64,000 nucleotides of DNA, from IMG/VR virus record IMGVR_UViG_3300042544_001941; one strand, 5' to 3'. Origin of the DNA: a virus. This document shows positions 4,718 through 40,042 of this stretch, piece by piece. Position 1 is the stretch's first letter; each line of letters begins with the position of its first letter. The notes beneath the pieces are model-generated. The model saw only the letters and a list, made by a program, of their open reading frames with translations, was not told the DNA's origin and did not search any database. The position numbers were made by a program, and so were the translations under genes.

Positions 4718-5338
4718 ATGGACACTTTAAATAAAAAATTAAAAGAGGAGTTACTTAAAATAAGAAAAAATCGTATTCAAGAATCATTAAATGAATTAAG
4801 TGATATTGAAGATGTTAATTTCTTATTTACACAATATCTAAGTAAAACCGGTAAATTACTTGAAGAAGGTTATACTATTGAAGAAATTGAATTGGTTTCT
4901 GAACAATTTTTAGATAAACTACAACAAGGAGTTGGTGCAGTTGCTGGCGATGTATGGAAAAATACTAACGTTTTCGACGCATTAATTGGTGGTGGTTTAG
5001 GTACAATAAAAGAACAAGTTATTAGATGGATATTAGTTCAACTTGGTGTTGGTCAAGGTGCTGCAAACGCAATGGCCGCGGCTCTTGAACAAATGGACCC
5101 AAGAGACTTGTTAAAAGTATTTAAAACTCCTGAATTGTGTAGAGAAAAAATGCCAGGAATTTCAGACGCAATTATGGCAGGTATTAGAGGTTATATGCAA
5201 TTCGGTGAAAAATCAGTAGGTTTAAATGTCGCTGACCAAGCAAAATCGGGTTTAGGTAATATCATTGATGAATTGATAAAACAATCAAATATTGGTGAAT
5301 TGGCTGGTAATAAACTTTGCGGAGTAATTTGGAAATAA
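4718..5338 (+). CDS. Hypothetical protein (probable virion-associated)
   Basis: 206-aa ORF in operon; I-Q-E/V-S-E-Q motifs followed by Gly-rich helices. Confidence 0.6.
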   Translation: MDTLNKKLKEELLKIRKNRIQESLNELSDIEDVNFLFTQYLSKTGKLLEEGYTIEEIELVSEQFLDKLQQGVGAVAGDVWKNTNVFDALIGGGLGTIKEQVIRWILVQLGVGQGAANAMAAALEQMDPRDLLKVFKTPELCREKMPGISDAIMAGIRGYMQFGEKSVGLNVADQAKSGLGNIIDELIKQSNIGELAGNKLCGVIWK

Positions 5339-6282
5339 TGGAAAACTTTAAAGAAAAAAAATACACAAAATCGGAATCTTACGAACCAACAAATCAAGAA
5401 GTATCCGAAGGATGGGGTGAAAATTTACTACAACTTGTTGGATTTGTACCAGTAATTGGTGAAATTGCAGATATTGCATTAATTATACATTATTATAGAC
5501 AAGATAGAAAAATTGAAGCTGGTTTAATGTTATTTGCGTTAATCCCAACCTTTGGTGATTTCCTCGTTAAACCATTCTTAAGATTAGGTAAAGCTGCAGG
5601 TGCATTTAAAACATCTGCGACATTTTTAAAATATTTATCAGACAATCCTGCAGCAAAGGCGGCATATTCTAAAATTGGTAAACAACTTGATAACCCTCAA
5701 ATTGCAAAATTAGTTGGTCAAGTAAATAAAGTTTCACCAGGTAACGCCACAATATTGAAAAACGCACAAAATTTACAAAAAGGTTTAATGGGTAAGGTTC
5801 AAGGTATGGCAACTACCGCAACTAAAACATTAGAAAGAGGTGTTGGTAAAACTGTTAAACAAAATTTTCAAAATCAAGCGTTACAAAGATTCTTAGTAAA
5901 CACAGGTGGTAAAGCACCTAGTAATTTTATTTCAAGATGGTGGAATGTTGTTTATGGTGGAAGAATGATGAGAAAAAACGTTGTTAGAAAATTAATACTT
6001 GGTAGTAATTTATTAGGTACATTTGGTTTCCCAAACATACAAACATTTGAAAATTTTATGCGTAATCCAGGTGATAATCCTGAATTAGCGGAAAAATTAT
6101 TAAAAGACCCTGAATTTGCAAAAATTTATAACAATTCACTTTCGGACGAAGAAAAATCATCATTAGAAAAATCTGGAGATAGTAGTGCAGAAAAAAGTCC
6201 TGGTGTTGTTGACAGTGCAATGGACGGTTTTAAAGGAATGGTTGGTTTAAGTTTATTAAAATCTTTCGCTCGTTTTGTTTAA
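5338..6282 (+). CDS. Protein with pre-toxin TG (PT-TG)-like segment
   Basis: LVGFVPVIGEIADIAL...AGLMLFALIPTFGD pattern; ATG overlaps previous stop (TAATG). Confidence 0.55.
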   Translation: MENFKEKKYTKSESYEPTNQEVSEGWGENLLQLVGFVPVIGEIADIALIIHYYRQDRKIEAGLMLFALIPTFGDFLVKPFLRLGKAAGAFKTSATFLKYLSDNPAAKAAYSKIGKQLDNPQIAKLVGQVNKVSPGNATILKNAQNLQKGLMGKVQGMATTATKTLERGVGKTVKQNFQNQALQRFLVNTGGKAPSNFISRWWNVVYGGRMMRKNVVRKLILGSNLLGTFGFPNIQTFENFMRNPGDNPELAEKLLKDPEFAKIYNNSLSDEEKSSLEKSGDSSAEKSPGVVDSAMDGFKGMVGLSLLKSFARFV

Positions 6283-6299
6283 TTTGTGATATTTATTAA

Positions 6300-6404
6300 T
6301 AGAGTTTAATTGGTTTGGTCGCCGTTAAACGATAACGATTATAAAACGAAAAGGAGGTATTCAAATCTCGGCAAAGGGTCTTCGGACCTTTTGTTCGTTT
6401 ATAC
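6300..6404 (+). ncRNA. Putative small late RNA 'A' carrying an extended Shine-Dalgarno sequence
   Basis: Follows TATTTATT (6290-6297); no canonical start codon; hairpins gtttaattgg/ccgttaaac, gaggt/atctc and aaagggtc-TTCG-gacctttt. Confidence 0.5.
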
Positions 6405-6423
6405 CTATTTACATTAAAACAAT

Positions 6424-7368
6424 ATGTTAAATAAAGTCAAACTTCACGTGTTTGGTGACTCTTTTACACAAACATTTAAATCTCATAGAACAGGTGGTTC
6501 AGCTTGGGGTAACAAGTATATGGATTACATTGGTGAGGTTCCTGAAAATTACACAGAATTAATCGCTAACCATTTCAATTACGATTTACACAATTACGCA
6601 GTTGGTGGCTGTTCAAATTATACAATATTCGATAAATTTTTCGAGAATAGAAAAAACATATCAGAAGGTGATATTGTAATTTTTGGTTGGACCGCAATAA
6701 ATAGATTTAGAATTGCAAATCACCAAAACAGATACGTTGATATATTACCAAATACTCCTCACCCAAAACAAAATGATGATGTTGATTTAAGAACAACACA
6801 AGAAATTGCTATTAATAGAGATTCGTATAGTATCTATTGGAAAGAGTTGGAACAATTTGTAAAAATCATAAATGAATTGTTAAAAAATAACACAGTATAT
6901 CATTGGAGTTGGTGTTTACCATCAAGTGATATTGTCGATAACATATGGTCAGAAGATAATCTCAGCCATAAAAATGTTATGATGGCCAGGTCTTGGAAAA
7001 ATATAGATATTGACGTTAAAAATGCAATTGGTAGAAGTTGTGATTTGTTACTTGATTTAGCCAAACCGTTTGATATGGATGAAATTAAGTCGTTAGTGAA
7101 TAGTGGTAAGAGAGTGTTCGGTGTTAATATTGAATTGGCTCCGTTAAACATTTTAGGACCATTTTATCAAACATTTAATTGTGTTGAATATAATTCCACC
7201 AACCACAGAAAAGAATGTTTTAAATTGTTCTTACCGTATTATAGTTACGAAACAATTAGACAGGAAACGAATGGTAATATACCTGACATCCATTATAGTA
7301 GAAATGGACACAAAGATTTAGCAAATACATTTATAGAATTACTTGAAACAAAAAAACCCATCGAATGA
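6424..7368 (+). CDS. SGNH/GDSL-hydrolase-like protein
   Basis: FGDSFT block I, NYAVGGCSN block II, C-terminal DIHYSRNGH. Confidence 0.7.
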   Translation: MLNKVKLHVFGDSFTQTFKSHRTGGSAWGNKYMDYIGEVPENYTELIANHFNYDLHNYAVGGCSNYTIFDKFFENRKNISEGDIVIFGWTAINRFRIANHQNRYVDILPNTPHPKQNDDVDLRTTQEIAINRDSYSIYWKELEQFVKIINELLKNNTVYHWSWCLPSSDIVDNIWSEDNLSHKNVMMARSWKNIDIDVKNAIGRSCDLLLDLAKPFDMDEIKSLVNSGKRVFGVNIELAPLNILGPFYQTFNCVEYNSTNHRKECFKLFLPYYSYETIRQETNGNIPDIHYSRNGHKDLANTFIELLETKKPIE

Positions 7369-7381: not shown

Positions 7382-7772
7382 TGGTGGAGGTGACGGGAGT
7401 CGAACCCGTGTCTTTCCTGCTCAACAATAAATGACTACACGTTTATTCAATTGGTTCTCAACTGACAAATAGTTTGTTTCATATAAGTGGGAACGAAACC
7501 AACAAACAACCTGGTCTCAGAGTTATTTTAAACGAGCTCTGACCTGTGACCCGTTTCAGTGGACTTCTGTTCCTAGGTATATGTCCTGACCGACCCGAGA
7601 TAGGAGTCTAACTTAGTTAGGCTGCTACTTTAGAAGTTGCAAGTAAACCTGCTACTTCCATATTGTTGTAAACGTTGCCGCTTAAAATTTTTCACCGTGG
7701 ATTTAAGTCATAGATGAATTCTGACTACGTGCCATTTATCCCTGATACCTGAAATCAATACCAGACACCCCC
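7382..7772 (-). ncRNA. ssrA: tmRNA
   Basis: 5' GGGGGTG pairs with 3' CACCTCC-ACCA with G3.U70; T-arm GGTTCGACTCC; tag frame 7679-7617 GNVYNNMEVAGLLATSKVAA*. Confidence 0.93.
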
Positions 7773-10616: not shown

Positions 10617-11419
10617 GGGCTGAGATTACACCATTTTGAGATTGACTTGGGGACATTATTTGATTCTTCCCTTATCCACTACCTTTTGAGTAGTACCAAT
10701 CAGCGGCGGTCAATTAGATTAACCAATCCTTAAGTCGTTATATACTCTTTTAATACTCATTACTCATCAAAGATGCCTCCCTGATTCAACCTTGCGGGTT
10801 TAGAGAACTTTTTTAAAAATCACATCGGGCTTGAGACCCTTTGTGGCCGTGAACCCCTCACGACTATGTAGCCACCTGTCTACAACGACTGACGAACACT
10901 TCTTCTTGTATGATTTTAAGTTGTTAAACCAAAATTAACAAAATTTAGTTATCCGAATTTGGAAAGTAGTGGTTCGTCACCTAGCCAAGCCACCTTTTGA
11001 GCGACTCGATACTAAACTACTCTCTGTAACATCCCTGCTACCATATTTTTGGACTCCTTCAATACTAAACTCTTGGTAGAGTCTAATAAAGGATGATAAC
11101 GACACCACTCGTACTTCACCATACCTTTCGGTTTTAAGATTCCCATCATATTGAATCACGTAATTGTATAGTTGGATAACTATATTTCTTACAATAACTC
11201 TATGGATTATTCTTGTTGGTGTTCCCACCTCAACCAAACAACTCGGATTGCTTGGTCATCAAACCACTTTCCCTAAAGTGTCACCCTCAGTACTTAAGGT
11301 TCGATGATATTCCACTTGCCTACTCGAGTTCCATTACTGAAACCGCAACTTACCTCAACCAAAGGTTCGTCACTTTATCCCACTTTCGTGGTTTATTTTA
11401 ATCGACCATAGGCGGCCAA
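10617..11419 (-). ncRNA. Large structured ncRNA, probably GOLLD
   Basis: ~800 nt without credible ORF, higher GC, many GNRA-capped hairpins (ccacGAAAgtgg, accGAAAggt, aacccGCAAggtt), own promoter plus boxA-like leader, near tRNAs; family call from memory. Confidence 0.7.
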
Positions 11420-27560: not shown

Positions 27561-27609
27561 ACTATTGTAAATATACGTAATTTTATCGATAAAACAAAAT
27601 ATTTGAAAA

Positions 27610-27716
27610 TAAAAAACCCCAACAAGATGTCGGGGTTTTAAGGTCTTTCGGTGGGTTCAACCCCACTTACTTATGAAAAAAAACGAAAAGGTAATCGACA
27701 AAGAGAACCTTTGAGA
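27610..27716 (-). ncRNA. Putative small late RNA 'B'
   Basis: TATTTATA (27718-27725, minus), no ORF, gtggg/cccac hairpin, terminator aaaacccc..ggggtttttt. Confidence 0.5.
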
Positions 27717-27753
27717 ATATAAATATATATGATTCTCATAAAAAGTCAACTAT

Positions 27754-39120: not shown

Positions 39121-39858
39121 ATGAACAAAATAGGGGTATTAAAAACCAAAATCTTAAAAAAACTTACAGAATCTTACTCAAGTCAGAACAAGTCTGAAAT
39201 GAAAGATATTTTAAAAACAATAAAAGAGAATAAAGACTTTAAAGAGTTATATCTTTTTTATGAAGAAATAGAGAACAAATATTTTGAAGATAAAGAAGTT
39301 GCTAAATTGTATGTTGAAGAACTTAACACAATTTTGAGAAGTAAGTCTAAAAGTCTTGTTGAATTTTGTAGTTCATTAAATCAAAAATTAGGTGAATTAG
39401 AAATCAATGAAAACGAGGTTTATTCTACTCTTGACCAATTATTAGAAGAGGACAGTTTAAACAACATCGATAAAAAGGTTATATCAAAGAAAAAATTAGT
39501 AAATCATTTAACAACCAAAAAAGAAGTTAATGAATCTAAAACAGAAGGTATCGTACCTAACGAAAGTTTATTACACGCCGTATTAGCGAACAATTTCAAC
39601 GTTTTATATACAAATAGTTTAAATGAAGAACAACAGGAGGAATTGAAATCAATTCTTTCAATGTCACAAGAAGATTTAGAGAAAAACATTACTGAATTAA
39701 AAGAATCTGTTTTAACCCAAGTGGGAACTATATTATCTGAAAATAAAGATGATGAATTAACAACAAAATTAACTCAAGTTCAAAAAGAGGTAAACGAAAT
39801 GAATTTTAATAAGTTTAATCTTTATAAACTTAAAGAATTAAAAAATGGTCTTAATTAA
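39121..39858 (+). CDS. Hypothetical helical protein downstream of portal
   Basis: 245-aa K/E-rich ORF. Confidence 0.7.
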   Translation: MNKIGVLKTKILKKLTESYSSQNKSEMKDILKTIKENKDFKELYLFYEEIENKYFEDKEVAKLYVEELNTILRSKSKSLVEFCSSLNQKLGELEINENEVYSTLDQLLEEDSLNNIDKKVISKKKLVNHLTTKKEVNESKTEGIVPNESLLHAVLANNFNVLYTNSLNEEQQEELKSILSMSQEDLEKNITELKESVLTQVGTILSENKDDELTTKLTQVQKEVNEMNFNKFNLYKLKELKNGLN

Positions 39859-39869
39859 GACCATTTTTT
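39840..39869. repeat. Perfect 30-bp palindrome spanning both convergent stop codons
   Basis: aaaaaatggtcttaa|ttaagaccatttttt. Confidence 0.9.
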
Positions 39870-40042
39870 TTTGATTCTATATAAATCGCTTTTAATTTTT
39901 GAGTTCTTTTCTTAACTGAAGGTTTTACGAACTCTTGCCTTTCTCTAAGTTTTTGTATCTGTTTTGTTTTTTGAACCTTTTGTTTATAGGTCCTAAGAGC
40001 AGATTCAAGACTCTTTTCATTTTTAATTTCTATTATTAACAT
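39851..40042 (-). CDS. rpsU: Ribosomal protein bS21
   Basis: IEIKNEKSLESALRTYKQKV..LRERQEFVKPSVKKR. Confidence 0.9.
   Translation of the reverse strand: MLIIEIKNEKSLESALRTYKQKVQKTKQIQKLRERQEFVKPSVKKRTQKLKAIYIESKKNGLN

Follow-up and report, generated by a model that had tools for sequence, protein, structure and literature searches.

The subject of this analysis is a small RNA, here termed RNA A, of a giant freshwater phage. The window, that is, the whole stretch of DNA analysed, comprises 64,000 nucleotides (nt) of IMG/VR virus record IMGVR_UViG_3300042544_001941, and RNA A is housed in a 141-nt gap between two open reading frames (ORFs) of the + strand, 5317–6282 and 6424–7368. Along the gap a GATATTTAT box comes first and is followed by a hairpin; an A-rich single strand, with AAAGGAGGTATTC at its end, separates this hairpin from a second one, whose loop is UUCG and which is followed by UUUUGUUCGUUU. 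RNA A is very likely a real, conserved, non-coding phage gene. In the reading favoured here, which is given about an even chance of being correct, it would work by pairing with the freed 3′ tail of 16S ribosomal RNA (rRNA), as a start-less mimic of the site at which ribosomes bind the host mRNA of rpsU, the gene for ribosomal protein bS21. A second small RNA of the same phage, RNA B, is complementary to parts of RNA A. The anatomy of RNA A was read from 110 aligned family members (alignment A2), with a consensus fold from RNAalifold.

6288–6296, + strand: TATTTAT-type promoter-like box GATATTTAT; TATTTAT is invariant in 110 of 110 aligned members
About 6301–6397, + strand: RNA A, a non-coding RNA of ~97 nt, both ends putative
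6304–6330, + strand: hairpin P1, with the apical hexaloop UUGGUC at 6315–6320; supported by covariation
6331–6335, + strand: invariant GAUAA following P1; A2 shows no variation in ATAA and almost none in the G
6343–6354, + strand: AAAACGAAAAGG, which forms helix 1 with RNA B as a perfect 12-bp complement and overlaps the 5′ part of the next element
6350–6362, + strand: extended Shine-Dalgarno (SD) sequence AAAGGAGGUAUUC (AAAGGAGGTATTC), complementary to 16S nt 1530–1542
6354–6369, + strand: weak helix P2, GAGGU (6354–6358) with AUCUC (6365–6369), from the RNAalifold consensus
6370–6400, + strand: terminator hairpin P3 (stem 6370–6395), with a UUCG loop and a U-rich tail; stem supported by covariation

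Spacing from the TATTTAT box would put the 5′ end of RNA A at about 6301 (AGAG). The strand is assigned as + because the G–U pairs and the U-tract fit this strand only; a reading of the minus strand as a mimic of the 16S tail was rejected on the same grounds, the G–U pairs being those of P1 and P3. In P1, 6 of the 10 pairs show changes on both sides, and 96.8% of the helix cells in A2 are paired. For the structure as a whole the figure is 97.7%, against ~50% with slid partners. The stem pairs of P3 also covary, and the entire stem has been replaced in some lineages. P2 is invariant and so untestable by covariation; three A-to-G variants retain a G–U pair. The UUGGUC loop is kept in 100 of 100 distinct sequences from a scan that made no demand on the loop, even where the closing stem has been replaced: the canonical GGUUUGGUCGCC is found in 91, and the other nine present UUGGUC on different closing stems (GGUAC...GUACC, for example) or have U–G changed to U–A. 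The A-rich linker terminates in ACGAAA(A)GGAGGU(A/G)UUC. The single-sequence fold of the locus modestly beats shuffles (z = −2.5). A pairing of GGAGGUAU with AUACC downstream of the terminator, which appears in that fold, was rejected as not conserved in relatives, and the likeness of the 5′ end of RNA A (AGAGUUUGAU) to the 5′ end of 16S rRNA, which falls in covarying stem positions, is put down to chance.

Relatives were collected by way of the downstream GDSL-like protein. The gap is nearly identical, base for base, in three of them (L001, L009 and L036), whose flanking proteins are only ~60% identical and whose flanking DNA has diverged. A metagenome scan with two RNA A blocks returned at least 120 loci, mostly from lakes and some with marine labels; these reduce to 113 distinct sequences, ~8 of which are unrelated matches to ribosome-binding sites of gut phages. 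A scan of viral contigs that needed only the box and the P1 loop yielded 82 IMG/VR contigs, many of them 100–335 kb long. Of 22 matches in a scan of bacterial genomes 2 are genuine, both on contigs of metagenome-assembled genomes (MAGs), L432 and the degenerate L440; no host-encoded homologue of RNA A was found in that scan. The L432 contig is binned with a Flavobacterium MAG. In the L440 copy (7039–7170, − strand, on a Bacteroidota MAG contig) the box, P1 and GAUAA survive intact, but the decayed AAAAAGAGGTAG stands in place of the SD and a terminator cannot be recognised. No Rfam 15 family matched at gathering thresholds, and nothing meaningful was found up to E = 10 in 6200–6500. Nor was there similarity to the locus or the RNA in 50,697 GenBank phage records, and an IMG/VR search with both flanking proteins found nothing. 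Two 14-mer scans of viral contigs gave mostly random matches, L036 alone being common to both.

Between the SD and the terminator, family members differ by indels of 1–2 nt and have variable stops and frames, so that RNA A contains no conserved ORF. The gene downstream is not constant: some members have it, some have another and some have none, and the flanks vary as well. Because it is missing altogether in L036, the RNA A unit is regarded as independent of it. As expected of an independent small RNA, the unit combines a promoter-like box and an intrinsic terminator of its own with conservation irrespective of its neighbours. An earlier reading of this DNA from the letters alone (the sequence-only reading) had described a multi-hairpin unit of ~100 nt with an SD-like motif at 6350–6362 and no start codon, and this description is borne out by the 141-nt gap with its P1, P2 and P3: no ATG, GTG or TTG occurs 4–15 nt after the GGAGG of this motif. 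It is highly improbable that the SD is the working ribosome-binding site of a tiny peptide with a non-canonical start, such as the AUC at 6365, or a cis-acting stabiliser, of the STAB-SD type, for the gene that follows. An invariant AUC does lie 6–9 nt after GGAGG, and Bacillus has mRNAs that are stabilised by an orphan SD, as in the STAB-SD of cryIIIA. The frame that opens at this AUC, however, varies in length (21 codons in the window, 12 in L001, 6 in L036) and extends across the terminator stem; what lies downstream is a variable gene or none, with a strong terminator intervening; and the ribosomes of Bacteroidia ignore ordinary SDs (PMC7797042, PMC13000453).

The extended SD is the most constrained single-stranded part of RNA A. 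It is the sole site in the window within 1 mismatch of the 13-mer, and a chance motif was rejected above all on the strength of family-wide conservation, although the AAGGAGG 7-mer alone occurs in the window at chance frequency (4 found, 4.8 expected). The predicted duplex with the tail, −16 to −20 kcal/mol where the best of 65 gene starts reaches −9.1, is a further sign that more than chance is at work. Conservation in homologs, which the sequence-only reading had put forward as a check, is seen in a scan keyed to the box and the P1 loop alone, with no demand on the SD: all of the ~128 true members so found carry AAA(A)GGAGGU or a G–U-compatible GGGGG or GGGAGG. The variants in this SD-free scan are distributed as follows.

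AAAAGGAGGTATTC: 52 members
...GGTATTT: 22 members
AAAGGAGGTAT(T/C)C: 28 members
AAAAGGAGGTGTT(C/T): 18 members
GGGGG or GGGAGG, compatible through G–U pairing: a handful of members

The 16S tail given in the sequence-only reading is real: 37 of 61 Flavobacteriaceae genomes have the tail CTGGAACACCTCCTTTCT (GAACACCUCCUUUCU), many of them more than once, while the reversed control gave 0 matches, and the 12-of-13 match to it holds. A variant tail, CTGGAATACCTCCTTT (GAAUACCUCCUUU), has U rather than C at position 1533 and is present in 20 of 301 Bacteroidota genomes at rrn-like copy numbers. The SD of the window is predicted to pair at 12 of 13 positions with the GAACACCUCCUUU (GAACACC) tail, at −16.1 kcal/mol, and at 13 of 13 with the GAAUACCUCCUUU (GAAUACC) tail, at −20.4 kcal/mol. 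The SD varies at a single base (A or G), which thus complements the single position at which the tail varies (U or C, 16S position 1533), and the 18 family members with G at this position are perfect for the common C tail. The L432 copy carries G, fitting the C tail of the sampled Flavobacteriaceae genomes; its own MAG is without a detectable 16S tail. The 12/13 match of the window is probably 13/13 with the true host. The segment AGGUAUUC is conserved though it lies outside the pairing with RNA B. No complementarity of at least 9 nt was found between RNA A and 16S rRNA outside the tail, the transfer-messenger RNA (tmRNA) of the phage, or its GOLLD RNA.

The known natural ligand of this tail is the rpsU mRNA. 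Three ribosomal proteins, bS21, bS18 and bS6, keep the anti-SD of F. johnsoniae buried, and rpsU is the sole gene with a strong SD; ribosomes that lack bS21 translate rpsU faster, initiation on rpsU strictly requires SD–anti-SD pairing, and the anti-SD is also important in 16S maturation (PMC7797042, PMC9976891, PMC13000453, PMC13000457). A 13-bp SD–anti-SD helix excludes bS21, and rpsU initiation depends on this helix (PMC13000457, PMC13000453, PMC9976891). A predicted energy below −13 kcal/mol has served to define SDs of this type (PMC13000453). Judged by at least 9–13 consecutive pairs with 16S nt 1532–1544 and an energy below −13 kcal/mol, the predicted duplexes of RNA A with both tails belong to the rpsU type. 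The location is another matter, since an SD of this type sits just upstream of the bS21 start codon and that of RNA A does not.

The leaders of rpsU were read in nine Bacteroidota genomes. Those with the C tail have (A)GAAAGGAGGUG or GAGAGGAGGUG, 9–10 nt before AUG, and the two with the U tail have AAAAGGGGGUAU and AAAGGGGGUAUC (core AAAGGGGGUAU). An unusual GGGGG+UAU form of the leader recurs among the RNA A variants. Because the extended SD and the GGGGG+UAU form are shared, RNA A resembles a host rpsU ribosome-binding site from which the start codon and the gene have been removed. The U tail GAAUACCUCCUUU was seen among genomes G069–G365, L587 and L588, and the AAAGGGGGUAU rpsU SDs of two such genomes are compensated for this tail.

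The phage encodes a bS21 of its own, as had been noted from the letters alone.

39851–40042, − strand: phage bS21 gene (PF01165, 46.8 bits)

This gene is 33 kb from RNA A and has a TATTTAT box and no SD upstream. In the window and in three large relatives alike, the bS21 genes are without an SD and stand directly behind TATTTAT-type boxes. The SD core is found at just 4 of the 65 gene starts of the window, the best duplex with the tail reaching −9.1 kcal/mol. From these SD-less phage genes, the Bacteroidia-like bS21 and the one copy binned with a Flavobacterium MAG, the host would appear to be a member of the Bacteroidota; assignment of the host by bS21 similarity was set aside, scores of 150 and 137 not being discriminating. 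All 6 of the large IMG/VR records with RNA A that were tested (234–324 kb) have a bS21 gene as well, and the co-occurrence suggested by the sequence-only reading is thereby found. Five bS21-bearing records outside the RNA A list have no RNA A, but they are just 20–65% complete and hence uninformative.

RNA B lies 21 kb from RNA A and has the same kind of promoter-like box.

27603–27726, − strand: RNA B (~115 nt, from ~27716 to 27603) with its TATTTAT box

Its parts are a hairpin at the 5′ end, a hairpin with the conserved GUGGGGUUGAACCCAC, a GACC that never varies, and a terminator; its folding z is −3.6, and two hairpins covary. RNA B occurs in more than 118 IMG/VR contigs, and in 5 of 5 large records it is present at 74–96% identity, always ~12 kb from bS21. 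Two helices with RNA A, in collinear antiparallel order, can be drawn. Helix 1 is a perfect 12 bp between CCUUUUCGUUUU of RNA B (CCTTTTCGTTTT, 27680–27691, − strand) and AAAACGAAAAGG of RNA A (6343–6354). Helix 2 comprises 11 bp, including two G–U pairs, between CUCUUUGUCGA of RNA B (CTCTTTGTCGA, 27695–27705, − strand) and UCGGCAAAGGG of RNA A (6368–6378, in the P3 region). RNA B overlaps the 5′ half of the SD, and because it covers this half, RNA B and the 16S tail should compete for RNA A. Compensation between the two RNAs was tabulated over 24 contigs that carry both.

CGAAAAGG in RNA A, CCTTTTCG in RNA B: 16 of 16 pairs (four-A/four-T)
CGAAAGG in RNA A, CCTTTCG in RNA B: 4 of 4 pairs (three-A/three-T)
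Fourth A changed to G in RNA A, four T retained in RNA B (G–U pair): 4 pairs
TCGGC in RNA A, GCCGA in RNA B: 5 of 5 pairs
TCGAC or TCGGC in RNA A, GTCGA in RNA B: 19 pairs (13 and 6)

Since these include at least two independent compensated differences, the A–B pairing is held to be under selection. The gain on cofolding the whole molecules, −9.3 kcal/mol, is inside the range of shuffled controls (−7.0 ± 2.8), so that the argument for pairing is built on conservation and the compensated changes. The 3-U form of the pairing segment of RNA B (CCUUUCG) is nearly identical with the 3′ end of 16S rRNA, CCUUUCU.

The properties of RNA B bear on a different explanation, which is considered unlikely: that the two RNAs are a small RNA and its sponge, acting on mRNAs and not on the ribosome. 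The CCUUU(U)CG segment of RNA B, for instance, could block SD-like, A-rich leaders such as that of host rpsU, and RNA A would mimic the target of RNA B or titrate RNA B, its likeness to an SD being due to this imitation. Two collinear helices of 12 and 11 bp are what such a pair would be expected to show, as are the compensated differences in the 24 same-contig pairs, both in the indel (three-A/three-T versus four-A/four-T) and in the C of RNA B that always stands opposite the G of RNA A. The wide distribution of both RNAs, their common promoter box, and the resemblance of the RNA B segment to CCUUUCU are in keeping with it too. It is harder to reconcile with the conserved AGGU(A/G)UUC, which lies outside the A–B helices and whose variable base matches the variants of the 16S tail, and with a cofolding gain within the shuffled range; moreover, that RNA B complements rpsU leaders is a judgement made by eye alone, with hosts unmatched to this phage.

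Pairing of RNA A with the freed 16S tail is preferred for three reasons: the part of the SD outside the RNA B helix is still invariant, the variable SD base mirrors natural variation in the tail, and energy and sequence match the sole known natural ligand of the tail. RNA A would be an independently transcribed small RNA, the single-stranded centre of which imitates the extended SD of host rpsU without a start codon. The tail, in Bacteroidia normally buried by bS21, bS18 and bS6, is free solely on subunits that are without bS21 or have released it, and RNA A would most likely pair with it over 12–14 bp. RNA A may compete with host rpsU mRNA for bS21-free subunits, and it could hold the tail outside its pocket; either effect would disturb autoregulation of host bS21 while the phage makes a bS21 that is SD-independent. 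RNA B, by pairing with the 5′ half of the SD and one arm of the terminator, probably sets the level of free RNA A. The anatomy and conservation of RNA A, its complementarity to real 16S tails, its resemblance to host rpsU leaders, its occurrence together with bS21 and the compensated A–B pairing are observed; we infer that RNA A is transcribed and binds the ribosome, and likewise that translation of host rpsU is blocked, host bS21 evicted and phage bS21 favoured.

The link to bS21 might also be more direct. P2 of RNA A, or the A:B duplex, could bind bS21 itself, as does P6 of OLE RNA, and either sequester host bS21 or chaperone phage bS21; this is judged improbable. bS21 binds an intramolecular SD/anti-SD mimic in OLE RNA (PMC12054373), P2 (GAGGU/AUCUC) is invariant, and RNA A co-occurs with a phage bS21. 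The bS21 of Bacteroidia, however, contacts the single-stranded tail and is excluded by the SD–anti-SD helix (PMC13000457). AUCUC is not an anti-SD copy, P2 is just 5 bp and beyond the reach of covariation, and direct binding leaves both the complementarity to the full 13 nt of the tail and the tracking of tail variants unexplained.

Several points weigh against pairing with the freed tail. The co-occurrence of RNA A and bS21 is seen inside one related phage group and may reflect shared ancestry. Most members carry A at the variable SD position, yet the U tail is present in just 20 of the 301 Bacteroidota genomes sampled, which would mean that the hosts cluster in U-tail lineages or that the mismatch is tolerated, the phages not being matched to individual hosts. 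In the free RNA, P2 is predicted to take up the GAGGU of the SD (unpaired probability 0.02–0.06), though as a helix of just 5 bp. Conservation of AAACGAAAAGG could be explained by RNA B pairing alone. Four metatranscriptomes represent the locus only by assembled contigs over small parts of it, in which ends, strand and level are unreadable. Transcript cover amounts to one 650-nt contig of a relative over 6341–6378, at depth 12 against ~3 for neighbour genes; the loop in this relative reads GGUUUGGUCACC, and the contig is a weak hint of expression.

Lastly, a plain decoy leaves the invariant UUGGUC loop and the invariant GAUAA unexplained. Much of the anti-SD decoy proposed in the sequence-only reading survives, namely the discrete conserved non-coding unit, the rpsU-like SD and a toggle that follows the tail variants, and the decoy is mechanistically plausible. 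UUGGUC, GAUAA and RNA B, the partner that overlaps the SD, were absent from that reading. With these three features, the system goes beyond a plain decoy in complexity.

A more inclusive proposal, tentative and on balance doubtful, is that RNA A, RNA B and the phage bS21 constitute one three-part device that hijacks the bS21/anti-SD switch of Bacteroidia. The long SD–anti-SD helix formed by RNA A would evict or exclude host bS21 and starve host rpsU mRNA of the sole ribosomes competent to translate it, the SD-independent phage bS21 would fill the vacated site, and RNA B, with its segment resembling the extreme 3′ end of 16S rRNA, would release or time RNA A.

The surroundings of RNA A in the window include the following features.

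230, 1297, 13992, 23412, 35459, 37272 and 62717, + strand: TATTTAT boxes 3–6 nt before ATG, examples from many genes
59828 and 52551, − strand: further examples of such boxes
7382–7772, − strand: tmRNA
10617–11024, − strand: GOLLD RNA

The window also has seven tRNAs. In most long loci RNA A adjoins the phage tmRNA, the two being convergent and often less than 100 nt apart, and tRNA arrays and GOLLD are close by; because of these neighbours, RNA A is a member of a translation-related RNA island. In the window, RNA A and the tmRNA are separated by the insertion of a GDSL-like gene. This gene (6424–7368, + strand) is GDSL/SGNH-like, a hydrolase with a weak Pfam match, and is missing from that spot in many relatives, L036 for example. 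The GOLLD RNA is full-length (Rfam RF02032, 311.8 bits) and lies near the tmRNA and the tRNA array of a phage that probably infects Bacteroidota. ARAGORN gives the tmRNA a tag of 20–21 residues (GNVYNNMEVAGLLATSKVAA), or a short ATSNVAVA in relatives (L060, L123, L361 and others). In a related 142-kb phage contig (L423) a tRNA with anticodon CUA at 7266–7340, − strand, is called tRNA-Pyl by ARAGORN; it might suppress amber codons, which would hint at a reassigned stop codon.

The TATTTAT box stands 2–8 nt before ATG in at least 6 genes of the window and 19 nt before the bS21 start, and is probably a phage promoter that gives rise to leaderless or short-leader mRNAs. It resembles the Bacteroidota −7 element TAnnTTTG; a generic sigma-70 promoter scan does not cover promoters of this type. 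The late timing that had been attributed to RNA A is suggested solely by this shared box.

The literature leaves open why bS21 is carried by so many phages of aquatic habitats and how their copy comes to replace that of the host (PMC9723584, PMC9976891). The group that studied bS21 autoregulation has speculated that bS21 phages might encode products that aid bS21 exchange, and RNA A, which carries the sole signal known to engage the silent anti-SD of Bacteroidia, is a concrete candidate for such a product. Strains of F. johnsoniae with a truncated bS21 or an ablated anti-SD are available, as are rpsU reporters and protocols for cryo-EM. If the favoured reading is true, this would be a new form of viral ribosome reprogramming, by an RNA decoy directed against rRNA and not by a protein factor, and a widespread RNA family and its partner would join the toolkit with which phages take over translation. 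We know of no natural trans-acting RNA that titrates the 16S anti-SD. The three-part device, if it exists, would be the first case in nature of an RNA acting in trans on the anti-SD of the ribosome, and would explain how phage bS21 is loaded onto host ribosomes. The full-text literature yielded no description of such an RNA, and the paper on bS21 phages of freshwater Bacteroidetes is without any small RNA.

Among known systems, the closest to RNA A in sequence is the extended SD region of rpsU in Flavobacteriales and other Bacteroidia, where 12–14 nt are complementary to the whole tail, with energies well beyond −13 kcal/mol (PMC7797042, PMC9976891, PMC13000453, PMC13000457). The core of RNA A is that of the host leaders, GAAAGGAGGUG and AAAGGGGGUAU, and no other gene there has an SD. 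In contrast to the rpsU region, RNA A is not part of an mRNA and has neither start codon nor ORF; it is a separate phage unit that extends from promoter to terminator, and it has in addition the UUGGUC hairpin, GAUAA and a dedicated antisense partner RNA.

OLE RNA with its P6 (PMC12054373) is likewise a non-ribosomal RNA that has an SD-type sequence, a link to bS21 and, in RNA A possibly, an SD/anti-SD-like helix (P2 or A:B). The possible counterpart, P2, comprises five invariant pairs, GAGGU/AUCUC, of which the AUCUC strand is not an anti-SD. OLE, an RNA of ~600 nt from Bacillota, pairs internally with an anti-SD copy of its own, whereas RNA A has the SD side alone and is proposed to pair with the real 16S tail or with another RNA molecule.

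Two further comparisons concern mode of action. The STAB-SD is a cis-acting 5′ stabiliser of the long cryIIIA mRNA of Bacillus thuringiensis, an SD-using host. Like RNA A, it is an SD without an associated start codon and is thought to bind the 30S subunit. It lies, however, in the 5′ untranslated region of the mRNA that it protects, whereas the SD of RNA A is directly followed by a terminator, within 40 nt, and then by a variable gene, in a type of host that is blind to SDs. In CsrB and RsmZ, GGA motifs titrate CsrA, and 6S RNA mimics an open promoter. RNA A, as proposed here, would resemble these small non-coding RNAs in imitating, and so titrating, a ligand of a core cellular machine; unlike theirs, its target would be the 16S anti-SD on a sub-population of ribosomes.

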